A stretch of DNA of 54,654 nt, the filler included, from Jimgerdemannia flammicorona (Eukaryota): assembly GCA_003990765.1 (NCBI GenBank). It is 3 parts of 3 records of this genome, joined end to end, with 100 filler letters (N's around TTAATTAATTAA, not from the genome) between each part and the next. Parts side by side here need not be neighbours in the genome. Positions count along the whole stretch, not along the records: positions 1 to 18,153 come from RBNJ01002284.1; 2 more parts are not named here. One strand, written 5' to 3'. This document shows, one piece after another, positions 10,890-54,654 of this stretch. The notes under the pieces are model-generated. The model was not told the DNA's origin. It saw only the letters and a program-made list of their open reading frames with translations, and did no database searches. Numbering within the stretch: position 1 is the first letter of the stretch; each line of letters begins with the position of its first letter. The position numbers and the translations under genes were made by a program.

Positions 10890-12802
10890 CTAGTACTCCA
10901 TGCTCATCTCATCTCCAGCCAGATCCAAGCACCATTCCGCCTCCAAGTCACCCTCCACAATAGCCTGAGCATCCAGTGTCTCCAAGATTTCCTGGCATTC
11001 CACCCCATCCACGACCTCCATATCTGACCGGTAGTCTAGGCAGACAGCACACCACTTCTCCAGTCCCTTCCTCAAATTCCACAAGAAAAGTGCCCTGTCA
11101 CTCGCAATCTTCCGAAGCTCCTCCTCCCGCTGATCATCTACTTGATATTCAACAGATTCCAAGAGAACAGCCAGGATCTCATTCCTCATCTTCCTCAGTA
11201 CCTCCTCCCCTCGCAGAATCTCCTCCCAATGCCTCTCCTCCATCACCTGGAAGTCCTCACCCCCCAGCTCTTCCGCCGCCACCCCTTCTAGGGTCTTCCA
11301 CATCCACTTTTCCTCGTCCACTGCCTCTGCCGCACCCTGAGCGATATGTCCCCCATCCACCTCCGGGTCCATCAGTGCGCTTCTCCTCACTGACTCATCC
11401 CACTCCTCATCTGGCACATCCATCAGCTCCTCCTCCCCCTCCGCCCCACCTGGGACACTATACTGAGGGTGCACACCCTCACTCATTTCAGCATCTACCA
11501 CCAACATACCTTCCTCCTCTACCCTCCCTCTAATCTGAGCCCCACCCTGTGCCATTTCACCCCCCTCAGCCCAAGCACTCTCCTGCAACCCTGCAACTCC
11601 TTCTTCGGAGCTTCCACCTGCCCTACCCTCGCCAGTAGCTCCTTCTGTATTTTCCTCCTCTGCATCTTCTCCCAAACCCCTTTCTCCATCTGGACCTTCT
11701 TCCCATCCACCTCCCCTACCACCATCCTGACCTCAAACTCCTTCCAGGCCAATCTCCTCCTTGCAACCGCCCCTTCCAGATCCTCCAGCGCCTCCAATAG
11801 ATTCTTCTCCTCCTCCTGGGTCCCCTTCACCCTCGCGACCTTACACTCCACTGGTCCCCACCTCAGCGTCGCCGGCCAGTCCCTCGACCTTCCCGTATTC
11901 TCCTTCCCAAACAGCCTCACCCTGACATCGATGTCCCCAGTCCTAAGCGTGGTGCCCTCCCAGACCTTGAACCCAACATCCACAATCTCGCCATACTCCT
12001 TGATCGCCTCCACAACCAGCTCTCTGGTCCTCTCCTTCGACACAGTGGGGAGATCCAACACTGTCAACTGCACCACCCGGGGGTCCCAGCGCATGCACCG
12101 GGCCATAGGAACCACAACTCCGCCAACCATCACCCCCTTTTTCATGGCTGCCAACAAGGCATCTTCCTCCTCAAACCCCACCTCAACCCCCTCCTTTCTC
12201 CTCAAAAACTTCACTGAGACTGCTCCCTTAGCCTCTTGCGCCACCAACCCCAAGATCATCCTCGCCATCACTGCCAAGCCCTGGAAGCTCATAGTGACTA
12301 CGAATTCCGACCTCGACTTCTTGAGTAATGGGGCCAACACCATGCCCGTCATGCCATCTGCCAGGTCCCCAGGCCTTGTGCCCCCTCCCAGTCCCGAATC
12401 GCCAACCGCCGTCACATCTGGATTTTTTGCCAGATCCCCAGTTACAGCCCTATCAGCAGTCACAGCCCCATCTCCAGCCCCTACTCCGGCTCCTACCCTA
12501 CCACCAGAGGCTCCCCTGGGCACACCTCCCTGTCCTTCAGCAGCAGCCGTCAAAGCCTTCCCCAGGCCCAGCCAACCATCAAGCCCAGAAGCCATCTTCC
12601 CCATTCTGACCATATCAGCAAAGGTCGACCTCTCCCCTCCTCTCTGCCTCAGACCGCCCCTCCCTCCACCGCCGGTGCCTCTGCTCACCCTCGAGGCCTC
12701 TGGCATCCCCAAACCATCACCCCTCCTCCCCACCTGCTGCCAGCCAAAGGCACTGTCACCCCTCTGGCCAGTACACTCACCGGTTCGATCAGTGCTGTCC
12801 AT
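10890..12802 (-). pseudogene. LINE ORF1 (Gly-rich N-terminus, RRM-like core, acidic C-terminus), one frameshift near 11560-11600
   Basis: ORFs 11519-12802 and 10890-11675 overlap in different frames. VQLTVLDLP...EAIKEYGEIVDV...RTGDIDVRV resembles the Tx1/L1-type ORF1 RRM. Confidence 0.75.
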
Positions 12803-12887
12803 GTTGCTAGTCGTCTGACACCAAAAATGTTGTAAAAAGTGTTGTCTGAGTCTTGTGTCGCCTGAATGATACTGGTGAAAGATGTGA

Positions 12888-14882
12888 TGTCAAAGATTTT
12901 GTCTAGAAATTACCTGCAAGATCACGAAGCTGAGTCAAACAGAAGTCACAGTGTATAAAGCTGAGTCAATATGAAGTCATGGAATACAAGAATTACACAA
13001 ACAGAATCTTATCAATTAGGACCAAATATATATATACCAAGTACTGAGACATGTCAAAACAGAGAACCAAAACAAACTAGATATACAACCACAACTCCTG
13101 AATATATACAAACATGAGTACCAAGATCTACAACTATATCTGTACTGACATTTGGAATACTATTGTCAACTGAGCCACACTCCCTCTGCCCCTCATGAAT
13201 ATTCATAGCTTAGCACCTCTCTACTTCATCAAAGCCTGATGGAATGCCCTGAACATACTTAGCAAGGTCTACCAAATTAGACAAATCTCAAGCTACTACC
13301 AGATTGGCTGCCTCCTGGAAGACATGGTCAAACACCATCATGACACAGACATTACCCAGATGTCTCAACACCAGAAACTCATTGTCCGCAAATACTGAGA
13401 ACTCTTTTATGAGTATAGCACCATTATTTCCCATCTCTGAGTTACTATCAGTAAAATGGTTACTACTCTATCCTATAGCCAAATCAATGATATGATATAA
13501 GAACTTAACCACAAGTATCTCAAATATATTCAGACCACAGACAGAACCTTCCTATAGCCTAACAACCATATTCTGCAAATGCCTCAAGTTGAATATACCA
13601 TGAAGGATATCTATGATATAATTCATTTTGACAAAGATGAAGTAGAAGACAATGACCCCTCTGATGCCAATATGACCTCAAGCCAAGGATCTCTGCCAAC
13701 CCTGATCATATCACCAACCTTGCCAATGAACTTATAACAGTTCATAACCATGTATGAGACTTATTGAGACAATGACCACTAGTATGAATATCAACCTATG
13801 TTTACCCCCAATTACTTCAACTACAATAAAGAGACCAGAAAACACAACCTATACCTCCAGACAACCCTCGAGATTGAACAAACAACTCTATCACCTGAGT
13901 ACAAGCAATATGAACCACAGCCACCAGCTTACTATAACCCAGCAACTCATAGTACTGTAATCTATAAAAGATATGCAGACAGCGAATCTGATGAAAGCAA
14001 AGATTATGCACCACTCCTTCACCCACCAATACCTTATCCAGCATATGAGACAGATGATGCTATCCTGTGGAACAGTGACAAAGTCCCAATGTATTATTAC
14101 CTCAGTGAATAAGGAGAGTTAATTCATGAATAACTCTTTCTAGATGACTACTTCATCAGAAATAATATCATCAAAGACTACCCAGACAGCATCTAAATCT
14201 ATAAATAGCTTAGCAGTTATAGTATAGTTAGATTAGCCTTGTATAATGTGACTGTGAGCTAACTCAGTAGTCAGACAATCTTCTGACATATCAGATTACA
14301 CTTGTACTATGTGACTGTATTCTGACTCAGTAAAGTACTAAGTACTATATCCATATTCAGCATAGCCCAGATAGCCCCTCACTAGTATAAATACCCCCTC
14401 TCCCAGACCTCAGAATCTCAGACTTGAACAGACTTGAACACACAAGAACATTTCTGAACACTTCCCCACAATATCTCTTTACATAACTACTCCTAGTATA
14501 GTAATACCATAAATAGTGAATAAATCTATTTAATAACCCACAAACCACTCTTAAGTAAATCTACTCTCCATTAGGTCCCACTTCTAACTCCATTATGAAA
14601 TTTCCTAATTGGATATTGTCTGCAGCGATACACCAATCCAACTAAGCTGGTCTTAGTTTCTTGAACTTCCTGAAATATGGAAAATCCTGAACATCCAGAA
14701 CTAGTCCAAAAAAGAACTTTGGTTGAGATGTTAATCTGAACTTGAAATCAATAAGCATAGAGGACATACTCCATATGAAATTGATCTTGACCATAAGAAA
14801 ACAGTTTTCCAGAATATCCAGAACTTCCAGAAAACCCTTCCAGAACTATGTAATAGTTACCCTAACAAGTAACCCTCTTACA
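12888..14882 (+). mobile_element. ~2-kb LTR (family C) containing an internal ORF
   Basis: Termini tgtcaaag...ctcttaca, gtataaatacccc at 14385, aataaa downstream. The last 255 bp are homologous to the insertion starting tgtaagag at 54401. The left end is inferred. Confidence 0.7.
13114..14196 (+). pseudogene. LTR-internal gene of family C (~360 codons, unknown function)
   Basis: One frame from ATG 13114 to TAA 14196 with no frameshift. Internal stops are all consistent with single C>T/G>A changes. TATA-like run at ~13027-13036. Confidence 0.7.
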
Positions 14883-16984
14883 GATACCAAGATGACTTAT
14901 ATAATTATAGTAAGATCTAAATATCTGAATAAGATATCTAATACTATAAGTGTTTTATCAGACTTATAGATAATTGTTAGATTGAAGGTTTAGAGCTTGA
15001 GACTCTACTTGACTTACAGATATAACAAAGTAGATTGGATATTGATATACTTAAGTACTTAATAATCAGTGATGACATTAAACTCAATACTTTCTAGATA
15101 GTATTATCAGTAGTTTAGTATATGAATTATTATTAGTAGCTTCTTCTCATAGGTGGCTAACTTTTGTTTAGCTAGGGCCAACTTATGAGACTTAAAAGCA
15201 ATAGGATGATATTCTTTGCCATCATCTTATAATAGGACTGCTCTAATGACAAAATTTGATACATTAGTGATAATATTGGATTTTAGACTTAGGTCTATAT
15301 TATATAAAACTGAAGCATGAGTTAGATAGTTCTTGAGTTCTTAGAAGGCTTATTGATAGAAGAGATCTCAGATATAGAGTACATAGTAATCAGAGTTAGG
15401 AGTCTTTCTTATAAGGTTAGTTAGTAGCTCAGTAATATCAGAGACATTTCTGATAAAGTAATAGTAGTAGCCAGCTAGACTAAGAAAGGACCAGAGTTCT
15501 GTGAGGTTTAATGGAATTGGTCATTCTTAAATTACCTCTATCTTATATAAGTCTACTTGAATTCCTTATATAGAGATAATATAGCTAAGATATTTAACTT
15601 GTTCTTTGAAGAATTCACACTTTTTGAGCTTTATATAAAGCTTGTATTTTTGCAAGATCTCCAGGACTACTCAGATATATTTGAGGTATTCTTTTTTAGT
15701 TATACTAAAGATCAGAATATTATTAAGATATACCAATAAGAAGATGAATAGTTAGTCTTTGAATATCTTATTTATGAGAGTCTAGAATATAATAGGTATA
15801 TTGGTAAGATCAAATATTAGGACTAGAAATTCATAGAGTCTAAAGGGAGTCATAAATATAGTCTTAGAGATATCTTCTAGCTTGATTCAGATTTAGTAGT
15901 AATCTGACATAAGGTCCAATTTAGTAAAGTACTTAGTATTCTTGAGAGTATCAAAAATTTGATCAATTAAGGATAGTAGATATCAGTTCTTAACTATAAG
16001 CTTATTGAGTACATAGTAGTCTATATATATTTGCAAAGTACTATTCTTTTTCTTGACAAATAGGACTGGTGAGCTATAGAGAGATTTACTTGATTAAATG
16101 ACTCTTTATATAAGTAGTTCTTCTAGTTCCTTCTTGACTGCTTCAATTTCAAGAGGTGATTATAGTATATATATTTCTTAGATAGTATAACTCCTATGGT
16201 TAGTTTAATTTTATGATCAGCTTCTCATATAGATGGTAGACCAAATAGTCTATCTGAGAAGATATTCTTGAATTCTTTAAGCAATAACTTAATGTTTTAT
16301 TAATTGACAGCTTTTTATTATATTTCTTAGAACAGACTATTGCAACAAAGGTATATATTACTTTTTTGAGTACTTTCTTATACTGTATTGCTGACAGTAT
16401 TACTACTGAAGTCATATTTACAGGCTTATCTGTCTTGATAGTGATATTGACTCTATTTTGAAGTAAAGTAACTTTATTCTTATACTAATTAATATTCATA
16501 AGCCAGGGTTTCTCTAAGATCAGATTATGATCTCCATAATATGATCTTAAAGTCTACTTATTTATAATATTTCTAGATCTTAATGGGTAGTTTGGCTATA
16601 ATTGACTTAATAGGATATAGTATACCATCTATAGTAACTATATCATCATTCTTGAATGTAGACTTGATGAGGATTTTGAGGTTTTCAATAAGGTTCTGAT
16701 TGATGAAGTTTTCTATAGCTCTATTGTCTATAAGTATTAAACTTCTTTTTCTTTGACTAGATCTTTGAAAATAAGTATAGCTTAAGCTCAATTTGCAGTA
16801 AAACTTACTACTTGATCAGTACTATCAAAATCTTTTTAGTCTCACTTGGTTTCAGATAGTTCTTAGACTTCTGTAATCTTAGGTTAACTGGCTTTTTCTA
16901 AGATTATTTGTATAACTTGATCTCCTTCTTTAACTATATATATAGTCTTGATTCTTCTGGTTAACAAGTAAGACTTGAACTTGG
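14883..16984 (-). pseudogene. Decayed Ty3/gypsy pol (protease - RT - RNase H)
   Basis: ILIDNRAIENFI (DSGA protease), SPVLFVKKKNSTL, FTKLDL, SFLSLAGYY and ITNVSNFVIRAVLL remnants. Cut after RNase H by the family C LTR. Confidence 0.85.
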
Positions 16985-18153
16985 CTCCTTTCTCTACTAC
17001 CTTACCAGTCACAAGGTTTGGTGGGCAACCTTCTGAGTCCCCTTTCCCCTATTATTACCCCCTCTACCTCAGATTGGTTTGCTGTGCCTGTAGGGGCATA
17101 GTGGGAGGAGGGCAATGGTGATGAGTTGCCCCTTTATCGGTGTCAGATCGGTGCTTCCTCCACTTTTTCGCGGATTCTAGTGCCTTTGGCTGTGTCTGGG
17201 GTATACCCATTTTGGTGCGGCACCTTCTTCCTTTTGCCGTCGCCAATAAGGAGTTGTTTCGGTATGTCTCAGGCTACGTAGGGAGTCGGCCGACCTTGGG
17301 TGTCAAGTGCTCAGTGTAGGTTACCTACAGGTCCTCGGTGCCTGTGGTGGGGCCCTCTGGCTTTGGCGAGCTTCCCAGCAAGTATGGTTCTGGCGTAGGT
17401 GACTGTTTTTCAGGTGTTGTCGGGATGGGAGGGGAGATGGCCATCACAGATAGGAGGAAGGGCGATAACGGTGGACCAGTGGGGTGCCAGGCTGGGGGCG
17501 GTCATCGGGGCTGGGGCAGGTGCTGCTTCAGTGGGGTCTTTTGATTGGTGTGGTGCGGTTAGGTGGTAGGTGTCACTATCAGCTTCTTTTGGCAGTCAGT
17601 GGGGTTGGGCCCCAGTTGTCAGGGGGGGTCAGGAGGCCCAAGGCTACCCATTTCAGGCATCTTGGCTGCACTCAACTGGAACCAGGAGCTGACATGGCAA
17701 TGTGATCGAGGCCCGCAAGCTTAAGTAGTGGGGTATTGGGGGTTTCCTTCTGCCTCACGTGTAAGTCCTTTACTCACCTCGACTGAGAGAACCAGGCCCT
17801 ACCCACCATGTTGTACTTTGATGAGGGTTTTTCTTTGCCTGTCATTCTCTTTGGGGTGGTAGGGGCTATTCTATTCGGCTCGGGCATGGCCTTGTACATA
17901 CGTTGGGTTCTCAGGCATGTGCTTTTGGTCGTTGGCATATGGTTGGGTTTCCCCTGGTGGTAGGGAGAGCATGGTGCACAGAATGAGGTGCGGGCCTACA
18001 TCAGCCCTGCTGCGCCTGGCATGGTCGAGCTGCTGGACAATAGCTAGCCTAGATTAATGGGGTGGCAGTGCTTGGTGGGTGGTGGGGGAGGGTTTTGGCC
18101 TATATAGTCTAGGTTCCCTTCCAATAAAAATCCACGGGACATGAGTCTGTTAA
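16985..18153 (+). mobile_element. Non-autonomous polyadenylated retroposon (SINE-like), copy 1, least decayed
   Basis: Collinear with 34052-35213 and 53597-54400. Starts ctcctttctc; aataaa at 18123; runs into a gap. Confidence 0.8.
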
Positions 18154-32217: not shown

Positions 32218-35200
32218 TACTATCAATATGACAATATACAATAGTTCTGATAGACATACCAAATTAGATGTCCTAGAGCCTTTGGTTGCAGTTTGTCAGA
32301 AGGGGCTACAGTATAGAGATGGGTTTTTTCTGTAGTAAGAGTGGGCTGATCAGGTCTGATAAGAGTTTGCTATAGGATATAGGTGGTAGAGAACAGAGGC
32401 TTATGAGCTTTCCTGACAAAGTGATGGCTGGAAGTTGGGCTGAGAGTGCTTAGAGAAGCAAGTCTAGAGAGAGGGAAATAGTGAGCACTGTGAGAACTGG
32501 AGAGTTGGTACCTATCAGAGTGAGTGTAGGGGCTGATAGAGTAGTTAACTGAGGGTAGAGGTATATCTGCTGATGATCGTATGATATAGAACCTGGAAAA
32601 AAATTCAGATATAACTGCTAATAGCAGGGCTGAGTAAATGGAGTATGCTGGGAAGGTAGATCAGATATATAGATAATATAATAGGACTGGTAGTAACCCC
32701 ATTACTCAAGAAATCTATCTCTAAATTTGCTATTACTTTATATAATAGTAATGACTAAGATAGTCTTGGCCTTAATTATAAAGCAAATAACTGGTATAGC
32801 TTCAGTAAAGTTCATACAGAAGTTAGAGAGAGTTGAGGTGAATTATAAAGAGATAGGACTATTGGAGGAGGTCTTGAGGACTGGGTTAGTGGTTTGAGAA
32901 GTAGTGGTACTAATGGCTTAGTATTTGAGATGAGACCCTAGGATGGTTCACCTCCTAGTAAAAGGGGTATTCACTGTAACAGTAGTTGAGATAAGGAGGA
33001 GAGTGGAGGGGATTATAGTAGAGATGATATAGTAGATATTGGATTTCAGGTGTGAGAGGAGATCTTATTCAGAACTAGAGATGTGGTTGTCTGAATCCAG
33101 AAGAGATCTTTAGGAAGTCTCAAGTCAGGTCTTTAGTATTTATGCAAGATACTTTTATTTATAAGGTAGTAGGGTGAAGGAGAGTGAGGAGGAGGAGGAT
33201 GATCTGTTGAAGACTCTAGAGAAACTCAGTGGGATGATAGAGTGAAGAGCAGTAATATAGAGGACTTATAAAAGACTTGAAAGTTGTAAATAGAAAGAGG
33301 ATTCATATAGATAATATAATGTGAGAGAAGATACAAAGATAGAAGAGGCAGAGACGTTTATTGATAGATATGAAGAAGAGACCAGCAACTGGATTGAAGG
33401 GGATTTAGATAAGTTGAAGACCACTGATTGAGCTGGAGATAGAGCAGGAAAGAGGATTGTAAGTGTGGCAGAGAACAGAATTACAAGGAGTCAGCAACTC
33501 TATGTTGATGGTATGCTCAAGATTTAAGAAGAGAAAGAGGTATATAAGATAAGAGATATATAGTACTTGAGAGAGAAAGGGTCAGGAGAATGTAGAGATA
33601 AGAGGCATATAGAGGGTCTAGTTTGGGATATCTGATATGATGAAGATTGGGTAGGTGGTCAGAGTTGAGAAGGATGAGGTACAGAATATTCTATGGGAAA
33701 GATAATATATGTCTGCTAGACTGAGATAGATATCACCATCCTGAAGGAGAGGAGGCCTACAATTCTGGGGAGAAAAATTATTAGTAATTTGCACTAGATG
33801 AGTACCATAATAAATAAGTTGAATGCAGAGAAGCTAAGGAAGGTAGACTAATATATTATTATATAGAATATTGAGCAAGAGCATTGAGAGAAGATTAAGT
33901 AATTGAGAAATAGATAGTAGAGATTTTGATAGTATTTTAGGAGAAGAAAGGATATGAGATAGATATTATAAGAGATACTCAACTAGCAGTATCTGCTAGA
34001 GAGCATACTATATTCTAGTAGTGGTAGTATTATTAATTACAGCTCTAATAGCTCCTTTCTCTACTATCATACTCACAAGATTGGTAGATAATCTTCTGAG
34101 TCTCTTTTCCCTTATTCTACCTGCTCTATCTCAGATTGATTTGCTGAACCTACAAGGGCATAGTGGGAGGAAGACAATGGTAATGAGTTGTCCCTCTATT
34201 AGTGCTTTTTCTACTATTTCTGGTACCTCTGAATATATCTAGTATATACTCATTTTGGAATAGTGTCTTCTTCCTTTTGCTGTTATTAATAAGATATCAT
34301 CTGGATATATCATAAGATATATAGAGTATCAGCTGACCTTAGGTCTAAAGTACCAGTATAGTTACCTATAGGTTCTTGGTGTCTATGGTGGAGCTCTCTG
34401 AGCTTTGGTGAGCTTCTCAGCAAATATAGTACTGGTATAGGTAACTGCTTTTCAGGTAAGAGTAGGATGAGAGGAGAGATGGCCATTACAGATAAGAGTA
34501 AGAGTTACTATGGTAAATCAGTGAGGTATTAGACTGCAGGCAGTCATTAGGGTTGAGATGAGTACTATATCAGTAGGGCCTTCTAATTGGTACAGAGTGG
34601 TTAAGTGATAGGTATCACTCTTAACTACTTTTGATAATATATAGAATTGGACCCTGGTTGTTGGAGTAGTCAGAGGGCCCAAGGCTATCCAGATCAGATA
34701 TCTCAGCTATATTCAACTGAAATCAGAATCTGAGATAACAATATAATCAAGACCTGTAGACTTGAGTAGTAGAGTATTGGGGGTCTTCTCTCATCTTATA
34801 TATGAGTTCTCTACTTATCTTACTTGAGAGAACTAGGTCCTATTTACTGTTCTGTACTTTGATGGAGATTTTTCTTTATCTGTTACTTCACTTGAGATAG
34901 AAGGAGCTATATAAATCAGCTTTGATATAGCCTTATACATATGTTAGGATTTGAATATATATCTTTAATCATGGGCATATAGTTGTTTACTCTTTAGTGA
35001 TAGAAAGATCATGGTGTATAGATTAAAGTATGTGCTTTTATAAGATCTACTATACCTAATATAATTGAGCTGCTGAATAATAACTAGTTTAAATTAATGG
35101 AAGTATAGTACTTGTGTGGTGGTGGGGGAGGGTTTTGGCCTATATTATATAGATTCTCTTCTAATAAAAATCCACAGGACTTTGAGTCTAAAAAAAAAAA

Positions 35201-36544: not shown

Positions 36545-38123
36545 GCACAGAATTTGTCAATAGATTCTATGAGATAATATATCAGAAATACAAGATTTAG
36601 CATATAAAGACCACTGTATACCACTCTCAAGGAAATGGACAGATAGAGAGAATCAATAAGACCCTCAAGAACATCTTGGTGAAGATCTCAGGCATATATG
36701 ACAATTGGGATAACTATCTCCCAACTGCCCTCTCTGTTCTATGAGATATATAGTCACAGAGTACACACTTTACCCCAAGAGAACTGCTCTTCAGAGAAGA
36801 AGATTCTGATGTAATCTCAGTTATAAATCTAGATCTAACTTGGAGACAGGTTGACTCAGAAATCTGGAGACTACACCAAATCAGGAAGAAGGCTGAAGAT
36901 TACAACATCAAGTCACAAATACTGATAAGGAAGAATGCAGAAAAGAATTACAAGACCCTAGAACTCATCCAAATCAGAGAAAAAGTCCTACTATATCAAA
37001 ATATGGTAGAAGCCTCATGGTCACAAAAACTGGAGCCCAAATAGAAAGGACCCTTTTATATGCAAGATATCAAGAGAATTACCTTCTGGCTTAGAAAACT
37101 CTCAGGGACTATACTGCCTACTATGGTATATAGGAACAGACTCAAGAAGTACTATGAACCTATATAAGAGAAGTAAAATGTGATGACTGCCCATGAGGTT
37201 CTAGTCTGTGAATTATAACAGCATGTCCCATGACCAGTAGGCAATCTGTCTAGACCATTCTCTAAGGGATATAATATCAGCAACTACTCATTTATGAGAC
37301 TTTCAAAGCCAGAGTAGTTTGAACTGTCAACTGATTGATCAAGATCAGAATCAGGCCCTTGCTCTTTATGAAGGAAGTGACCCTTCACTATCATGCCAAA
37401 ATATATAGAGAAGATACCAGCCCATAAATACCACTTTTCAACCTCCTGAAAATTAGTAAATTTTTCAGACTAGACCAATAAATAAGGATATTTAAGAGAA
37501 GATCCTTATTCAGGAGGAAGATGTAATGGTGACCTCAGAATGATGACATCAGCACAGGAGACAGTCTTTCCTTACAAGTTACTAGATTGGAGTACAGAAA
37601 GATTATACTGCATAACTCACTTAGACTATAAGATGAGCAATGATGACCAACCATGAGTTATTGTGATCACAAGACAGACATCTTGAGGAATATAAAAGAA
37701 GGATCAAGAAACTATAGTAGTAGTAATCCAAACAAGGCTCACAGAAATAGTTCTAAAGACTTACTACAAACAAAATATCTGCTACTTGCCAAACCTCAAG
37801 GTCCAGGAACCACCAAGACCCCTCAGTCTAGGAAAGGATATTCTAAGACATCTGGAGAGCCATGAGGACTCACATAAGAAGGACTCCTAGCCTTAACCTG
37901 AATACTGGTGATCCTTATCATTATATTCTCTATCACAACAAAATGGAAACAAGGATCACCATTGCTACCAAATACCTCTAGATATAACAGGAGTATGAAA
38001 TAAGAAACCTCCTCTGCTAGAAATTTCCTCAGGCCAGTCACCAAGAAATACAAGATGTCACTCTCATGGATATATATATATGAAATAAGAATAGCCAAGA
38101 AGATTTATCAGGTCTTTAGATAT
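36543..38123 (+). mobile_element. Older family A gypsy copy: integrase C-terminus, ORF3 region, PPT and first part of the 3' LTR (LTR starts 37522)
   Basis: Collinear with 44435-46010. PPT caggaggaaga is followed by tgtaatggtgacc. Confidence 0.9.
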
Positions 38124-38365
38124 TGTAATGGTGACCCCAGAATGATGACATCAGTATAGGAGACAGTCTTTCTTTGCAAGCCACCAGATCAGAGCACAAG
38201 AAGATCATACAGCATATGAGATGAGCAATGATGATCAACTGTAAGTCATTGTGACCACAGTACAAGCATCCTGAAGAATATAAAAGAAGGATCAAGGAAC
38301 TATAGTAGCAGCAATCAACAAGACCCACCAATCCCAAAATAGCTCAAAGACTCACTACAAAAAAA

Positions 38366-39178
38366 ATACCTACTGCCCATCAAACCTCAAGGTCAAGGAA
38401 CCACCAAGGCACCTTGGTTGAAGAAAGAATGTTCCAAGACATCAGAAGAGCCATGAGGACCCACTCAGGAAGGACTCCTAGTGTCAACCTGGGTACTGGT
38501 AACCCCTATTACTATATTCTCTACTATCGCAAAATGGAAACAAGGATCATTATTACCACTGAATGCCTCCAAATGTGGCAGGAGTATGAAATAGAAAACC
38601 TCCTCTGCCAGGAGTTCCCACAGGCCAGCCCTCAAGAGCTACAAGATGCCACTCCTATGGACATATATGAGGCAAGAATGGCTAAGAAGATCCATCAGAT
38701 ATTCAGGCATATACCATGGTTAATCCCCAACTTGGAGTATATTAGAGTCTCAGATTTCAGAGATCTGACATCCTGCTGTATCAATGCACTAGAAGCCAGG
38801 GTGGCTACAGAAGCCCAGTCTACTATCACTCTCAATAGTGATGAAGTAGAAGACTTCTGGTATTCCATCCTTCAGGACAACCCAGACCAATTCCTGCAAG
38901 GATTGATCTCAGTATTCCAAGGCCCAAGCATCCAGGTTAGACCTACCCAAGACCCCACATTTGTTCTCTATTTTGTAGAAGAGAACCTTATAGACTAGAG
39001 AGCTCCAGATCTCCTTATTCCCACCACTGCCAAATGTGATGATGTCATCAGCAATGACATCATTCTGCATGACCTATGTGACCTTGATGAAATGTTCGTG
39101 GACCTTATCTCCTTTGAAGATATCCTGACCTCTGACAAAAAGGATGAAGCCTCTATAGTCCTGAACATTCTGCTCTAA
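38366..39178 (+). pseudogene. LTR-internal gene of family A (~270 aa, unknown function)
   Basis: Open over 38366-38995. ATA at 38366 is ATG in the 3' LTR (45665), and TAG at 38996 is TGG in the 3' LTR. The terminal CTGCTCTAA is conserved in all three LTR copies. Confidence 0.8.
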
Positions 39179-39195
39179 GTCCCTTATTATACTAA

Positions 39196-39335
39196 ATAAT
39201 ACCAGCACCAGTATTCTGAGGTAACACTGAATAATGCTAGCACTGACATTCTGAGGTAACACTGAATAATACCAGCACCAGCATTCTGAGGTAACACTGA
39301 ATAATGCTAGCACCAGCATTTTGATGTGACACCAA
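39196..39335 (+). repeat. Four 35-bp tandem repeats in the LTR (also at ~46486-46625)
   Basis: Unit ataataccagcaccagcattctgaggtaacactga, starting at 39196, 39231, 39266 and 39301. Confidence 0.9.
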
Positions 39336-39715
39336 ATTATACCAGCATCTTGAACCTGTACAACCATCAGGATCAACCCTGGAACTTAGCAGTTTTTTCT
39401 GTCCTGGCATTTTATTATAGTTATTGGAATTTATATTTAGCTTTATATCTTAGCAACCATTAAATTATATTTTGTATAAATACCCCTCTTATTCCCTCTA
39501 AAATAAAGTCAGTTCTGGTTCACTTATATACAATCTCTTGTAAGCAATCTAAGAGATAATAAGACAGTTTAAAGATAAGAAGTTTGAGGACTATAAGATC
39601 TTGGGAAGGCACTCCAATAAGAACTTGCTTATAACAAACTTGAGTTAGTCTAAGAGATATATCTTGAAGAGAATCTGGTATATTTGAAGGACTCAGCAAC
39701 CACTATGTGACAACT

Positions 39716-41934: not shown

Positions 41935-42355
41935 CACCCTCAAGGTCAAGAAGTTTTACCCCAAAGTCAAGATCCCAGAATACAAGACCGAGGAGCCATA
42001 GGAATGGACCTTGTCAGCATTCAAGATGCTACCCTCGAACCACAGACCACCACTCTACTTGGCACTGGAATTGGAGTCAAGCTGCTAGAGAACTATGCCA
42101 GAATTATCAAGACCAGGAGCAGTCTGGCCAAAAGTGAAATCTCAGTTGAAGGAGGAGTAATTGACCCTGATTACACTGGTGAGATCTTCCTCATAGTCAG
42201 GAATCACAACCCCACCACCCCATTCGAAGTCAAGAAGCATGACAGAATTGGCTAGATGCTGATCTATGAAATCAAGAAGCCCAAGATCATAGAAGCCATC
42301 GAACTCATCAAGACCAAGAGAGGAGAACAAGGCTTTGAATCTACTGGAAGAGGAG
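41935..42355 (+). pseudogene. dut: dUTPase domain between protease and RT
   Basis: GMDL, TRSSLA, GGVIDPDYTGEI, DRIG(Q) and RGEQGFESTG correspond to the five dUTPase motifs. Confidence 0.93.
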
Positions 42356-45120: not shown

Positions 45121-45444
45121 ATGACCAGCAGGCTATCTGTCTGAACCATTCTCTAAGAGATACAGCACCAGCAACTACTCATCTGTGAGACTTTCGAAGC
45201 CAGAGGAGTTTGAACCATCAACTGATTGGTCAAGATCAGAATCAGGCCCTTGCTCTATATGAAGGGAGCAACTCTTCACCATCATGCCAAAATACAAAGA
45301 GAATATGCCAGCTCATAAATACCACTTTTTGACCCCTTGCCAGAGGTTATGAGATCAGTAAATTTTTCAGAACTGGACCAATGAATAAGGATGCTCAAGA
45401 AGATTCTTATTCAGGAAAAAGATGTAACGGTGACCCCAGAATGA
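45121..45444 (+). pseudogene. Putative extra ORF3 between pol and the 3' LTR, reading through the PPT
   Basis: 108-codon frame ending 22 nt inside the LTR, with stops revertible to CGA/CAA. The core (IYETF.AR...RL.KIRIRPLL.MK) is also present in the older copy from 37230. Confidence 0.5.
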
Positions 45445-47001
45445 TGACATCAGTACAGGAGACAGTCTTTCCTTACAAGCCACCAGATTAGAGCACAAGA
45501 AGATCATATAGCATACAAGATCAGCAATGATAACCAACTGTGAGTCATTGCAACTACAGTATAAGCATTCTGAGAAATATAAAAGAAAGATCAAGGAACC
45601 ACAGTAGCAGCAACCAATAAGACCCACCAATCCCAAAATAGCTCAAAGACTCACTACAAACAAAATGCCTGCTACCTGCCAAACCTCAAGGTCAAGAAAC
45701 CACTAAGGCACCTCAGTTGAAGAAAGGATGTTCCAAGACATCAGAAGAGCCATGAGGACCCACTCAGAAAGGACTCCTAGTATCAACCTGGGTACTGGTG
45801 ACCTCTATCACTATATCCTCTACTGCCATGAAATGGAAACAAGGATCACCATTGCCACTGAATGCCTCCAAATGTGGTAGGAGTATGAAATAGGAAACCT
45901 TCTCTGCCAGGAGTTCCCACAGGCCAGCCCTCAAGAGCTACAAGATGCTACTCCCATGGATATATGTGAGGCAAGAACAGCTAAGAAGATCCATCAGATC
46001 TTCAGGCATGTATCATGGTCAATCCCTAACTTGGAGTATGTTAGAGTCTCAGATTTCAGAGATCTGTCATCTCACCATATCAATGCACTAGAAGCCAGGG
46101 TGGCTACAGAAGCCCAGTCCACTATCACTCTCAATAGTGATGAAGTAGAAGACTTCTGACATCCCATCCTTCAGAACAACTCAGACCAATTCCTGCAAGG
46201 ATTGATCTCAGTATTCCAAGGCCCAAGCATCCAGGTTAGACCTACCCAAGACCTCACATTTGTTCTCTATTTTGTAGAAAAGAATCTCATAGACTGGAGA
46301 GCTTTGTTCCTGCCACTGCTGAACATGATGACATCATCAGCAATGACATTATCTCGTGTGACCTACATGACCTTGACAAAACATTTGTAGACTTTATCTC
46401 CTTCAAAGATATCCTGACCTCTAACAACAAGGATGAAGCCCCCATAGTCCTGAACATTCTGCTCTAAGTCCCTTGTTATACTAAATAATACCAGCACCGG
46501 CATTCTGAGGTAACACTGAATAATGCCAGCACCAGCATTCTGAGGTAACACTGAATAATGCCAGCACCAGTATTCTGAGGTAACACTGAATAATGCTAGT
46601 ACTGGTATTTTGATGTGACACCAAATTATACTAGCATCTTGAACCTGTACAATCATCAGTACTGACTCTGAAACTTAGCAGTTTTTCCTGTCCTGGCATT
46701 TTATTATAGTTATTGGAATTTATATTTAGCTTTATATCTAAGCAACTATTGAATTATATTTTGTATAAATACCCCTCTTATTCTCTCTGAAATAAAGTCA
46801 GTTCTAGTTTACTTATATACAATCCCTAGCAAGTAATCTAAGAGATAACAAGACAGTTTAAAGATAAGAAGTTTGAGGACTATAAGACCTTGGAAAAGTA
46901 CTCCAATAAGAACTTGCTTATAACAAACTTGAGTTAGTCTAAGAGATATACCTTGAAGAGAATCTGGCATATTTGAAGGACTCAGCGACTACTACATAAC
47001 A
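45423..47001 (+). repeat. 3' LTR of family A element (1579 bp)
   Basis: tgtaacggtg...cataaca, preceded by the decayed PPT caggaaaaaga. Contains the second copy of the LTR gene from ATG 45665. Confidence 0.93.
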
Positions 47002-47005
47002 ATAT

Positions 47006-48027
47006 ATACTATGGTTAATCTCCAACTTGGAGTACACTAGGATCTCAGACTTCAAGAAACTGTCAGCCTGCCATACCAATGCACTAGAGGCCATAGTAGT
47101 CACAGAAGCCCAGTCTACTATTACCCTCAATAGTGATGAGGTAGGAACCCTATTCTTGAGGACAATTCTGATCAATTCCTACAAGAATTGATCTCAGCAT
47201 TCCAAGGCCCCAGCATCTAGATTAGATGTCTCCAAGACCCCACATTTGTCCCTTATTTTGTGGAAGAGAACCTCATATATTGGAGAGCCCCAGACCTCCT
47301 TGCTTTCTCTACTGCCAAATGAGATAATGTTACCTGCAATGATATCATTAGTGATGACATTATCCCACAAGATATGTGTGAAGTATACAAAATACATGAT
47401 ATATACAAAACAGATGAAATGTTCATGGACTTCATCTCCTTTGAAGTCATCCTGTCTCTGATCTCTGGCCTTGATAATGGTGACAAAGATGAAGCCCCCA
47501 TAGTTTTGAACTTTCTGCTCTAAGTTCTTAGTAATACTGAATTCTACCAGCATCCTTTTTCTGTATAACTGTTATTCTTCTGGTATTCTGATCTTGTATA
47601 ACTCAGAAATTCTTCTGGTATCCTTTTTCTATATCACTAAAATTCTACCGGCATTCTGAACTTGTGCAACTATTTATACAGATACTTGAACTTATACTTA
47701 TAACTGTAGTTTTCTGTATTCCAGTATTTATTTGGTATTGGAATTTATATTTAGCTTTATAACTTTGCAACCATTGAGTTACATTTTGTATAAATACCCC
47801 TCTTATTTCCTTTGAAATAAAGTCAGTTCTAGTTCACTTACTCTCAATTCTATACAAGCAATCTAAGAAATAACAAGATAGTTTAAAGATAAGAAGTTTG
47901 AGGACTATAAGACCTTGGGAAGGCACTCTAATAAGAACTTGCTTATAACAAACTTATGGTTAGTCTAAGAGATACATTTTGAAGAAAATCTGTTATATTT
48001 GAAGGACTCAGTGACCACTATATGACA
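47006..48027 (+). repeat. Remainder of the 3' LTR of the older family A copy
   Basis: Joins 37522-38123 exactly once the ATAT TSD is removed; ends tatgaca. Confidence 0.9.
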
Positions 48028-50950
48028 ATGTATACCAGGATACAGATATTGAGCAATAATCTAAAAATATTATTTATTTAGTATTCAAAAGTTGCTGGTA
48101 TATTTTTTAAGTCAAAAGATATAACTTAGAACTGATAGTATTCAAAACACATTTAGAATTCTGTATTTTCAATATCTTTTTCATTAATGAGGATCTGGTA
48201 GTATCCATTTTACAAATCTAATAAAGAGAAAGTCTTGGTCTTGAAGATTTGATACAATAACTCATCAATCCTAAGCAAGGTATACTAGTTCTTAATAGTG
48301 ATTTTATTGAGAGCTCTGTAGTTAATATATATTTACAGAGAGCTATTCTTCTTCTTAACAAATAGAATGAGGCTCTAAATGAGAAATGGCTGAGTTTAAT
48401 GTATTCTTAGATCATTAATTTGATCAGCTCATTCTTTAGGATCTTGAGTTTGGATTGAGCCAGCTAGTAGATACTCTGATATAGTAGTTCAGATCCTGAG
48501 ATGAGGTCAATCCATATTGGATTTGGTGTTTTAGTAGGAGTCCTCTGAGTTTCTGAAATATATCTTAGAATTTCTTAAATAGTTCTTAGTCTTATAGTAA
48601 TACTGAGTTACTTGGGGCTTCAGTGATTTCTTATACTGTGCAGATATGGCAGATATTTCCCTTTTTGTATTAAAGTCTCTTCATCTGAAAGATAGAAATT
48701 ATCTCAATTTCTTAGTAAGTGTTGCTCTTTTAAGAAATTAGAGTGATATTTCTTCTTTATAAGTTGGATTGACCTTATTGATTCTCTAGTTGATATCTCA
48801 ATTATACTGGGTCAATCATACTTTTTCTAAGATAATATCTGTCCTGAGAGATCTATAATACTGAAGTCTAACTTTTCTTAATATTTGTCAATTTTGAATA
48901 ATAGGTTTTTCCAAATTCAGGTCAATAGTATAGTCTTGCTATTATAAAAAGTGATACTTCTCTTTTCAGTAGTTGGCTTGCTTTGGGCTCTAATCTTTTT
49001 AGCAGTCTTAAGTCTAATATAGTTTTCTATAGCACTACTGTTCAGTAGACCATTGATATCTTATTATAAACTTAGCAAATAAAATTGATACAACTGTCCT
49101 TCTTCTTGATAGTATTGAGCTCTTTATCATTATTGCTCCATTTGTCCCAATTACTATTAGTCTCCACAAAGTCAGTTTCTCTCTATCCTTTAGAGGAAAT
49201 GTGGTCTGATTTAGGTTCCTCAGTTAGTAGAGCTTGATATCTCTCAGATGGAATTTTGAAAACCTTGAAGAGGTATATATAGTATTCACTAATATATTTC
49301 TTATAGTATATTCTGATAGAATAAGAGTATTATACATATAGTGTATAATTATCTGCAATTCTCTTATACTAGCTTTCATCATTGTTATCTTTCATAATAG
49401 TGATCTTTTGACTAGTAGATTTATTAGTAGATCTAAACTCTTTTTTGCTCTGATCTGTCTGGGTGAGTTTAGAGACTTCTTTGATGATAAAATCTTAAGA
49501 ATTACTTCAATAATAGTCAGAGCAATTCTTTGGCCTACTTTGACTTCAAATGATATATCACCAAAATTTTGCAAGATTACACAGATTTCTCCAATAAAGT
49601 CTTGATCAACTCCTCCTCCTCCTAGACCAATGTTGAATTCTTTCACCAGACTGCTTCATTTGATAAGATAGATATATATTCCATTAGAGGCTTGTATTGA
49701 AATTACAGTATATATTATAGCATTATTACTAGGTAGAATAGTGAGATCCTGACTACAATAGAGATCATATCTAGCATCAGTAAAATGAGCCTTAGTGGGG
49801 ATATTAGCCTTGAATAATATTTTCTATACTTTGATAATATTCTTGAAGTTCTTTTCTCTAAAGACTTCTCTAATAAGAGTGATGGTCTGGTTACTATATT
49901 CATCTGAGGGATTTCTGTTTCTTTTCTCAAAGTATCTAAAGGAAATATATTCTGCCTTTGTAGATAAAGTATAATTTTTTTTTTCAGAGCTGTTTCTTCT
50001 CATCCTTATTGAGCAGTTTGAGTTCTCTATAATTTAACTGATTTCTCTGGTCTCTTTAATCATTTCTCCTGAGAGAGTTTCTCTTTTCTAGTTAGTTTTT
50101 TTGTGTTTCTAATTTTATGGAGTCTAAGTAGTAAGGATTTTAAAGTACTTAAACAAAGTACTATAAGTAGTATGAGTATCTTTGGAAAAGACCCTATCCC
50201 TTGATCTTCTGAGTGAGTCAGTCTGAAAGGGCTGCAAAAAGGTAATTAGCCCTGGTACTATTGATAGTCAGATTGTTTTTCTAGTTAGTAAGTCCTATAG
50301 TCTTGAGATAGACATCTGTTCTAGTAGTAAAGATTTCTAGATCCTCCTCCTCATTCTTATAGAACTTCAACTGGGCTAGTTTATTTTAGATTTTTTATAT
50401 ATAGGTCACATTTCAGAATATATTCAGTAGTAAGATCTTGAGTTCTAGACCTACTGTATAGTTATCTCAATCTGGTCTATTTGATATAACTATCTGTCTA
50501 TTTACTTAAGAATAGTTTTTCTAGGTTACTAGATATTCTTCTAAGATATGCCAGAACTCAGCTACTATTCTAGTAAAGAATGTTACCACTATTTCTACTT
50601 GGGCCACTGATATAGCAAAAAATTATTAAAGGGTCTATTAAATTTGTTATTAAGTATTCTTGTAAAGACTTAGTTATCTTTTCATTAGTTTGCTTGATAT
50701 CCTATAACTACTATATTGATAAATGTTTTAATATCACTATTCTTTCTACTGAATATTGAAACTCTCAAGATCTTGGTAGATTTGCTCTATATAATAATTT
50801 ATTCTACTATTTCTACTAGAGTGGCTAGCTAGGTAGTTAGGGTTAGAATATTTATATCTATTATTGTATTAGTTACTGGTAATAGGTCTATAGAGATGAA
50901 TTCTCCTAAAGATTGTTCTGTCTACTATAGTTGTAGTATAGAGTAACTTG
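48028..50950 (-). pseudogene. Decayed Ty3/gypsy element family B: gag - dUTPase - Cys/His module - protease - RT (cut at VYI|DD)
   Basis: dUTPase DARYDL...SSL...GVDQDFIGEI...QRIA (~49400-49830); protease GLLNSSAIENY (~49020-49055); RT LFVKKKNSSL..INYRALNKITIKN, ending LVYI at 48028. The gag boundary is approximate. Confidence 0.85.
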
Positions 50951-52242
50951 GAGTAGCTTAGTTTTCAGAGATTAGATTAAAAAATCCTATAAGAGTGAAT
51001 AAACCAAACTATAGTATGGGTGCTTGATTTAGTTCTGGGATCTAGTAGGTGTAATTTTCTTGGTCTGTGGATCCTTGCAAACTTCCTAGGTCTGCTATTC
51101 CTTATTAGCTATCATTAGACTGATATTCTATAGAATCTTCATCTGAATCCCTTCTCTGATGAGATAGTATATCCTTATACTGACTAAGTTCTTCAAAAAA
51201 GTCTAGTATCTAATTGAGTAAATAGATCTGCTTCTTGATCAGAGGTTTGAGATAGGAGATCTGACTGCTCATTCTTATATCTAATAATAGTGTTGGCATG
51301 ATATATAGCTAACCAATTATAGAGAGATGTTTAGATAGGAGTATGGTGGTATAGTGGTATATATTAGATATAATTCACTCTTTTGCTACTATTCTTGCTA
51401 TAGTAGAGACTGAGGTGATATAGACTAGAAATTCCTGAGTAACTGCAGTAGTAGATTCTAGAGTCTCAGTAGCTCTAATATAGTTATGAATAAGGGTGTT
51501 TAACCTATAATAACTACTTATATTCTTAAGGTCTAGGTGATAGTTCCTAAAGGTCTCATATAGGTCTTGATATATATATATATTTAATTAACTAGTAGCT
51601 GGTATATTCTTTGGTCTGTATTATCCTAGTACTATCTAACCCTAGTGACTATTACTAGAATGGCTTTATTTTATAGATCTATTTCTTAGTAATCTATAGG
51701 TGATACTGGGTTTACTCCTCTCTAAGATTGGTCTTGAATTTAACTTTACAGAAGTATATTCTTGATACTATTTTAGCTCAATAATCTACTGCTAATAGGT
51801 TATAATAATACTTATTTCTACCTCTTTCTTATCCTAGATAATTAGAAAAACAAAATATTACTTAGAAACTTAGTATATAAGTATACCAAGAAGCCTTCAG
51901 TATGAGGAAGTACTTACTTAAAAGTAGTTATAGCAGCAATGTCCTTCTTGATAACTGAAGTTATAAGAGACTTATTCTTTATTTATATATAGACTAAATT
52001 TGCTTAGAATTTAGGTTTAATAAGGGGTTTTCTTAAGTTTTTGGATTTATATATCTCTTACTCTATAATATAGCTAAATTTGGCTATAAAAAAAAACTGC
52101 TATAAAAATATTATATAAATCAAAAATAATAAAATAATTTCAACTTTTCTAATTTTTTTTTTATAATATATATCAAGTCAAAAAAAAAAAAATTAAAAAT
52201 TTAAAATTTAAAATTTTTTTACAGACAAATTTGGCTACATCT

Positions 52243-52720
52243 TATTACAGAATAAGATATATACTTATCTTTAGTTTTGAGAGAAGTTAGGCTTCTAGAG
52301 TTTAGTCAGAAATACTAGAGTTATTTAAGTATCATTACTAAGATACAGGAGAATATGTATATGTAATAGGAACTTGATTCTTATATTAAAGACTGAACTA
52401 AAACTGCTTTATTTCAGATAGAATGCTGGGAATATTTATAAAGTTGGTTTGTAATTTCTGACTAAGTATGAGCTACAAATTTAGTAACTATAGATGACCT
52501 TATAATCAGGATCTTTGTAATCAGGACTTTTATAATCAAGACCTTTATAATATTAGTTGTTAGGTAATAATTAGTTACTATAGTGATTATTACAGTATTG
52601 GTTATAGGGGATAAGCTGAATTATCTATAATATTTATACTATTTGTATCTTATTCATATTATTCAGAATAAGCTACTTGATCATAATATCATTATCATTA
52701 GATTATGTAATTACATGTCA
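52243..52720 (-). mobile_element. Solo LTR (478 bp)
   Basis: Termini tattaca (TG->TA)...tgtca; 5-bp TSD catct/cacct. The minus strand has tataaata then aataaa. 15-bp tandem repeats at 52496-52550. Confidence 0.65.
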
Positions 52721-53596: not shown

Positions 53597-54400
53597 CCTT
53601 TCTCTGCTATCTTACCAGTTACAATGGTTTGGTAGGCAATCTTCTGAGTCTACTTTCCACAATTACTACCCCCTCTACCTTGGGTTAATTTGCTATACTT
53701 ATTGTAGGGCAGTGGGAGGGAGGCAATGGTGATGAGTTGCTCTTTTATCAGTGTCTGATCAGTATTTGCTCCACTTTTTTACAGATTCTGATGTCTTCAG
53801 CTGTATCTAGAGTGCATCTGTTTTGGTACAGTGCCTTCTTCCTTTTGCTGTTACCAATAAGGGGTTGTCTTAATGTATCATGGGTTATGTAGAGAGTTAG
53901 TCAACCTTGGACATCAAGTGCCCAGTATAGATTATCTATAGGTTCTTGGTGCCTATAGTAAGGCCCTCTGGCTTTAGCAAGCTTCCTGGCAAGCATAGTT
54001 CTGGTGTAGGTGACTGTTTTTCAGATGTTGTTGGGATGGGAGGAGAGATGGTCATCACAGATAGAAGGAAGGGTGATTATGGTGAACCAGTAGAGTACTA
54101 GGCTGGAGGTAGTCATCAGGGCTGGGGCAGATACTGCTTCAGTGGGGCCTTTTGATTGGTGCAGAGTGGTTAGGTGAGAGGTATCACTCTTAGCTTCTTT
54201 TGATAATTCAGCAGGTTGGATTCTGGTCATTGGGGGGGGTCAGGGGGCCTGAGGCTACCTATTTCAGACATCTTAGCTATACTTAACTAGAACCAAAAGC
54301 TGATATAGAAATGTGATCAAGGCCCACAGGCTTGAGTAGTGGAGTATTGGGGGTCTTCTCCCACCTCACATATAAGTTCTTTATTCATCTTGACTGGGAG
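53597..54400 (+). mobile_element. SINE-like retroposon, copy 3, interrupted by an LTR insertion
   Basis: Collinear with 16987-17790; same 5' start. Confidence 0.85.
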
Positions 54401-54654
54401 TGTAAGAGGGTTACTTTTTAGGGTGACCGTTACGTAGTTCTAGAAGGGTTTTCTGGAAGTTCTGGCTATTCTTGGAAGACCGTTTTCTTATGGTCAAGAT
54501 CAATTTCGTATGGAGTACGTCCTCTACGCTTATTGATTTCAAGATCGGGTTGACGTCTCAACCAAAGTCCTTCTTCGGACTAGTTCTGGATGTTCAGGAT
54601 TTTCCGTATTTCAGGAAGTTCGAGAAACTAAGACCAGCTTAGTTGAATTGGCGT
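54401..54654 (-). mobile_element. Young family C LTR (3' end), continuing beyond the window
   Basis: Its reverse complement aligns with 14628-14882 and retains its CpGs. Begins tgtaagag. Confidence 0.85.

Follow-up and report, generated by a model that had tools for sequence, protein, structure and literature searches.

An accessory gene in the probable U3 region of a chromovirus LTR from Jimgerdemannia flammicorona and its likely relatives at the 3′ end of other Gypsy families

Introduction

The stretch of DNA considered here (the window, 54,654 nucleotides, filler included) consists of three joined contigs from the 231-Mb assembly of the fungus Jimgerdemannia flammicorona. The fungal transcription-factor family PF04082 gave 44 matches here, against none in 14 prokaryote controls, in keeping with a fungal host. 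It contains a long reading frame situated within the long terminal repeat (LTR) of a retrotransposon family, termed family C. LTRs are "ordinarily non-coding" in the words of one passage of PMC4667437, and an LTR-borne protein gene is unusual because terminal repeats normally do not code. The locus raises two questions: whether the frame is or was a gene, and whether it is related to the gene found in the LTR of a second family, A, in the same window. A preliminary description of this DNA proposed that it is both, i.e. that the two LTRs carry members of one old, selected gene family.

Family C and its LTR

The family C LTR is found at positions 12902–14882 (+). It ends in CTTACA, lacks about 85 bp of its head and has no internal region attached. 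The preliminary description had the LTR start at 12888, which is not correct: the match begins at 12902 in 53 of 61 LTR-side hits, and the TGT at 12888 is not an LTR start. A LINE (ORF1 and 5′ end, 11519–12881, −) adjoins the clipped LTR, its 5′ end reaching 12881; it is a neighbor outside the element. An old, AT-rich Gypsy RT-RNase H region (14883–16200, −) is where the 3′ end of the LTR has inserted. A second copy (54401–54654, −), previously regarded as a young one, is merely the last 254 bp of an LTR; the contig ends at 54654, so this copy cannot be extended, and the gene is not reached.

A genome search with 12888–14882 gave 6072 candidates, of which 40 were scored and show 82–86% identity over the whole length. 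For the window copy, identity to other copies is 84–86%. The full LTR is approximately 2.07 kb (2.03–2.08 kb across 30 loci). Among these 30 loci, a TGTAAG-type start is present in 28 and the end is CTTACA-like; a polypurine tract (PPT) precedes the LTR in 13, a primer binding site (PBS) follows it in 11, and an exact 5-bp target site duplication is found in three. The window copy has neither a target site duplication nor a 5′ end. CpG is almost absent from the repeats of this genome, and copies thus decay by C-to-T change. A GC-rich repeat of about 1.1 kb, found at 16984–18148, 34051–35189 and 53597–54400, shows milder CpG depletion than its surroundings and matches the 3′ ends of LINE-like insertions beside many LTR copies.

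Locus L066 is a full family C element. It displays, in order, an LTR, PBS, gag with a zinc knuckle (zf-CCHC found), dUTPase, protease, RT, RNase H, integrase, chromodomain (Chromo, E-value = 7e-16), PPT and LTR. The domain order PR-RT-RH-INT with a C-terminal chromodomain makes family C a Ty3/Gypsy chromovirus. At L066:1022–1960 there is also an open frame of about 310 codons, in line with gag and upstream of the first gag Met seen, which lacks both a Pfam match and a clear start codon. The idea of a gag start within U5 was rejected, as in all seven copies examined the frame is closed or shifted on its way through the PBS.

The layout given in the preliminary description, with the frame between a TATA-like run (13027–13036, +) and GTATAAATACCCC at 14385, is confirmed. 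The upstream run is a putative internal promoter: TATATA or TATAAA is found no more than 110 bp upstream of the gene start in all 30 C copies, mostly at −74 to −83, and in most of them is preceded by CCAAT. The main LTR TATA motif GTATAAATACCCC (14385–14397, +) has 5070 exact matches in the genome, against none for the reversed control, and is common to the LTRs of families C, A and D. An AATAAA at 14519–14524 (+), at the same place in three copies compared, is a putative polyadenylation signal in R. With the gene ending at 14196, the main TATA at 14385, AATAAA at 14519 and the U3/R boundary placed from motifs just downstream of the main TATA, the gene would lie in U3. We infer that each C LTR may be a full transcription unit.

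The reading frame in U3

The frame (13114–14196, +) extends from ATG to TAA over 360–361 codons. As previously described, its 361 codons are free of frameshifts, yet the window copy has 11 internal stops. Each of these recurs in 0–14 of the other 29 copies, never in a majority, and in most C copies the gene is 365 codons long. None of the 359 internal columns has a stop in at least 80% of 30 C copies; the other two forward frames have 13 and 20 such columns. The start Met is kept in 29 of the 30 copies and the common stop in all of them, and five indel events are found in the 1098 columns inside the frame vs 34 in the 919 columns outside. A protein search of the genome gave 5922 candidates; 52 of the best 112, which are the best-scoring copies and not a random sample, are stop-free by a hand tally.

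The preliminary description asked for dN/dS among copies. It was estimated from transversions only, to avoid deamination bias, in 52 C copies. Transversion omega is 0.25 in the gene frame (S51/N72, p = 9e-13) and 0.13 for changes common to at least three copies, as compared with 1.16 and 1.41 in the other forward frames, 0.47 in the antisense shadow frame and 0.8–1.4 in the part of the LTR downstream of the gene. Selection is most evident in the tail of the protein (0.10–0.25). In codons 1–135 it appears in private transversions (0.38) and in transitions, and shared transversions there show no selection (S1/N6). In addition, two metagenome proteins span the C gene with 67% and 88% identity.

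The substitution pattern thus shows a gene that, judged by its codons, was translated and under selection while family C replicated. It is copied into both LTRs and into solo LTRs. The earlier proposal of a selected gene inside the LTR is supported by the copy-wide open frame and the frame-specific purifying selection, and the window copy, as its sequence reads, is a decayed chromovirus LTR whose U3 carries a formerly selected accessory gene. That the frame is an env-like membrane protein, whose place 3′ of pol in the genomic RNA it shares, or a frame open by chance, is extremely improbable: no transmembrane segment is predicted, the highest 19-residue hydropathy being 0.86 in C and lower in the other families, and 365 open codons have a chance probability of about 2e-7, to which the selection confined to this frame is added.

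Relation to genes of other Gypsy families

Family A is represented in the window by a 5′ LTR at 38124–39713 (+), with its gene at 38366–39178, and a second LTR at 45423–47002. Partial A LTRs at 37522–38119 and 47004–48035 flank this full element at both ends and represent nested insertion of the A element into an older A LTR. The preliminary description compared the C and A proteins directly. Its gap-free alignment of a 36-aa core is reproduced, with 7 of 36 residues identical, and, as stated there, the LTRs share no extended DNA similarity (longest matches, 13–19 bp). However, the direct protein match is at chance level, with a Smith-Waterman score of 37 that is reached by 532 of 2000 shuffles. 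The DEVED match also offered in its favor is unsupported, as most other C copies differ there and it lies outside every profile alignment.

Further families, D, E and F, came from 30 of the 5070 TATA-motif matches and from profile searches of genome DNA. The family D gene has 275 codons and a GTATAAATACCC of its own some 75 bp upstream; its stop touches the PPT, outside a 790-bp LTR. Family F has a 329-codon homologue inside the LTR. The family E gene (153 codons) has no tail and overlaps the end of pol, outside a 460-bp LTR. A TATA-like motif is found upstream of the gene in C, D and F. D and A are homologous with E = 2e-31, A and F as well as D and F with 1e-17, and E matches an A+D+F profile with 9e-7. 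Decayed pieces of family D are present in the window at 1040–1350 (+; 3′ end of the gene and start of the LTR) and at 48019–52621 (−; LTR with gag-pol). All five families carry a dUTPase, which in C and D follows gag and precedes protease, and in A and E separates protease from RT (sites compared: window positions 41974–42351 and loci L066, L199, L201 and L204).

Membership of C was assessed with a profile that contains no C sequence and was built from families A, D, E and F together with relatives from metagenomes. Four open C frames score 15.9–20.1 bits, a metagenome homologue 21.4 and the window copy 11.1. Full shuffles reach none of the C scores in 3000 trials, local shuffles likewise (0 of 3000) except for one that reaches the window copy, and reversed C sequences score approximately zero. 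It was contact with both profiles that first drew attention to family E. With E left out, the open C frames still give 15.2–19.8 bits, but only 5.2 remain for the window copy, a score reached by 11 and 9 of 3000 shuffles. In a six-frame scan of 844 kb, the C hits rank directly behind A, D, E and F (best E-value 6.6e-5; median 0.071 of 58), and the unlabelled hits are headed by two fragments of family A (0.014 and 0.096), followed by one at 0.18. The alignment spans C residues ~1–130 (profile positions ~5–150) with small indels, in the register of the 36-aa core. The N-terminal domain of about 135 codons (13114–13518, +) is the sole part of the C gene that matches the shared accessory family.

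Other comparisons are weaker. Profile-profile alignment by hhalign of C with A, D, E, AD and ADF gives E-values of 0.02–0.19, and the alignment with F is out of register. A phmmer search with C over 1.84 billion proteins recovered no A/D/E/F-type protein. The match of C to the profile is a targeted result that would fail a database-scale threshold. These weak pairwise and profile-profile scores, the 17–22% identity of the C protein to those of A, D, E and F, and the unrelated tails favor a real C gene with no relation to the others, in which an amphipathic-helix pattern arose by convergence and the position coincides. This is quite improbable, as the match is colinear from end to end over about 130 residues, beats all shuffles and disappears on reversal, and unrelated frames in 844 kb all score below the best C copies. 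C residues ~1–130 very probably belong, with the A, D, E and F proteins, to one unnamed family, here called X, which five Gypsy families carry at their 3′ end. The proposed homology to the family A gene is supported only by way of the intermediate families and profiles, the direct hhalign comparison of C with A giving E = 0.19.

Protein features and database searches

The 36-aa core (13387–13494, +) has the strongest amphipathic-helix signal of the family. The N-terminal domain of the C protein is neutral. It is followed by an acidic tail rich in proline and aromatic residues (13519–14193, +), for which no similarity to the tails of other families was found. The tail has a net charge of −45 over 230 aa in an open C copy, and of −16 to −34 in A, D and F. 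Family E is without an acidic tail, and the tail is therefore not general in X.

Database searches yielded no known family. At E ≤ 10, Pfam gave none for the C and A proteins, sag included, and alignments A3 and A5 gave sub-threshold hits only. A hit to a Mu HTH is weak (E = 0.03, in 3 of 21 members). For a possible DUF3102-like HTH DNA-binding domain, the family model (PF11300) gave no candidates in the genome. The best PHROGs match (E = 0.008, 2 of 21 members) is to a family of unknown function, and the best match among PDB sequences has E = 0.14. The ESM Atlas gave no usable hit for C residues 1–180 and, with the E protein, only hypothetical clusters and leads below the 170-feature mark. 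Phage genomes searched by tblastn gave a best E-value of 2, and viral contigs gave 0 of 267 candidates. One match in the C protein search, P0012 (E = 6e-4), is a repeat protein and was discarded as spurious.

Position of the gene relative to U3

The earlier description of an LTR-resident gene family holds for A, C and F, where the gene is inside the LTR; in D and E it is found between pol and the PPT. An unrooted RT tree gives (C,D) and (A,E) as sister pairs, each with support of 100/99, and F apart. Each pair has one member with the gene in the LTR and one with the gene outside, so the position has changed at least twice. On this distribution, X is a mobile 3′ accessory gene that appears to have crossed the U3 boundary at least twice. 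With 35% against 22%, the D gene resembles that of A more than that of C, the sister of D in the RT tree, and this points to an exchange of 3′ modules; the gene tree itself is poorly resolved, with long branches. A gene with its own TATA promoter beside the PPT could enter or leave U3 through a shift in the position of the PPT, or alternatively by recombination of 3′ ends.

C2 is a derivative of C without pol; four copies, all with one and the same deletion, were found. It keeps the C LTR ends and promoter, but the place of the gene in its U3 is taken by F-like DNA of 3′ internal origin (about 520 bp, 71%). This layout shows that U3 can take up 3′ internal DNA and that an element can be amplified without having the gene in cis. 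The C2 loci L212:155–4864, L213:104–6475 and L214:2312–8699 (G000 C5, C7) contain a PBS, gag, dUTPase and a 1.48-kb LTR; they are non-autonomous, with most of pol deleted and F/D-like 3′ internal DNA in U3. A segment of 300–550 bp, e.g. L111:7697–8006, is found in the 3′ internal DNA of D and F and in the C2 LTR with 71–80% identity. It is common to elements with unrelated pol, shows fixed stops in its C2 frames, and may be a cis-acting RNA or DNA element.

Comparison with known systems

Foamy-virus Tas/Bel1 is a 3′ accessory gene with an internal promoter, encoding a DNA-binding activator with an acidic domain, and lentiviral nef is a 3′ accessory gene that overlaps U3. The C gene resembles both by analogy only. 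The product of MMTV sag, a superantigen gene lying in the U3 of betaretrovirus LTRs, is a membrane protein, whereas the C protein has no hydrophobic segment; sag also comes from a mammalian retrovirus and has an immune function, and no sequence link to it was found. The likeness lies in the arrangement. In the relevant passages of PMC4667437, sag lies mostly in U3, is kept in solo LTRs and is under purifying selection, as is the case for the C gene.

Additional open reading frames (aORFs) are described, in sections of PMC7264820, for plant elements (the env-like genes of Athila/Bagy2, Grande gene23, RIRE2, Retand) and for fungal Boty, as extra 3′ genes conserved across a family, of unknown function and sometimes with their own promoter. 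Families D and E share that layout. However, those sections place aORFs internally, many of them antisense or with transmembrane segments (PMC7264820), whereas the X gene is in sense orientation, has a product predicted to be soluble, and in families C, A and F lies within the LTR. In bdelloids, parts of PMC5408684 describe ORF3s (GDSL, DEDDy, env-like) in which one accessory gene occurs across unrelated lineages with a dUTPase-bearing pol. X is also common to unrelated, dUTPase-bearing lineages, but the ORF3s are recognizable enzymes and lie outside short LTRs of 159–551 bp (PMC5408684).

Fungal dUTPase chromoviruses (Postia, Phanerochaete, Tuber Tmt1) display a chromodomain and a dUTPase at a variable place according to passages of PMC2864245, where a figure legend also gives an additional ORF of unknown function. 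Family C shares with them the Gypsy domain order with chromodomain and dUTPase; an LTR-borne gene is not mentioned in those passages. Searches of the open-licence PMC and bioRxiv literature listed no account of protein-coding genes within the LTRs of fungal retrotransposons. Extra 3′ genes and U3 genes are already known, and what appears new is an accessory gene in the U3 of a fungal Gypsy element. LTR annotation assumes that the repeats are non-coding, and a gene copied in thousands of LTRs therefore escapes notice.

Possible function and significance

The overall reading, a U3 accessory gene of family X that forms part of an LTR transcription unit and is transactivator-like, has somewhat better than an even chance of being correct. 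The gene in U3 would make each LTR a complete transcription unit, with an upstream TATA, the gene and a polyadenylation signal in R. The helical N-terminal domain would bind element DNA or chromatin and, by analogy with a retroviral transactivator, the acidic tail would activate LTR transcription. That the X protein is a trans-acting nuclear regulator built from these two parts is a tentative proposal. It is the reading best suited by a neutral N-terminal domain with one strong amphipathic helix, combined with an acidic tail and no membrane segment, and it was checked by protein composition only.

The protein could instead act on RNA or particles, in export, packaging, as a Gag partner or in copy-number control of related elements. 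In E the gene has no tail and runs over the last part of pol, an arrangement that would fit translational coupling of the two, and one Atlas lead, to be read as a lead only, is a phage translation repressor (0.92, at most 145 shared features). Such a role is improbable, since the upstream TATA-like motif in C, D and F suggests a separate transcript and long acidic tails are more typical of activators.

A further alternative accepts the same gene family, with a protein that works against silencing by the host, whether through methylation or RNAi, or that directs integration. The near absence of CpG from the repeats indicates heavy silencing pressure; however, no similarity to known anti-silencing proteins was found in the Pfam searches, and copies are heavily deaminated although the gene is present. 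Accessory proteins of transposable elements can modulate integration or counter silencing, as noted in part of PMC13547354, which lends this alternative some plausibility; it is nonetheless unlikely.

The transactivator reading can be extended to an unnamed transactivator family, a promoter-plus-gene module that moves between unrelated Gypsy lineages and repeatedly enters U3. This extension is speculative, and at present doubtful.

That sister lineages have the same gene family on opposite sides of the PPT provides a testable model for LTR growth, which also bears on how genes such as sag reach U3. The X gene is a protein marker of LTR history where the DNA no longer aligns, and the X protein is a candidate for a regulator underlying the growth of a fungal genome that is rich in repeats. 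If the transactivator module is real, thousands of solo LTRs in one fungal genome would be self-contained genes that activate other elements in trans, and regulation of the complex-retrovirus type would have arisen independently in fungal retrotransposons.
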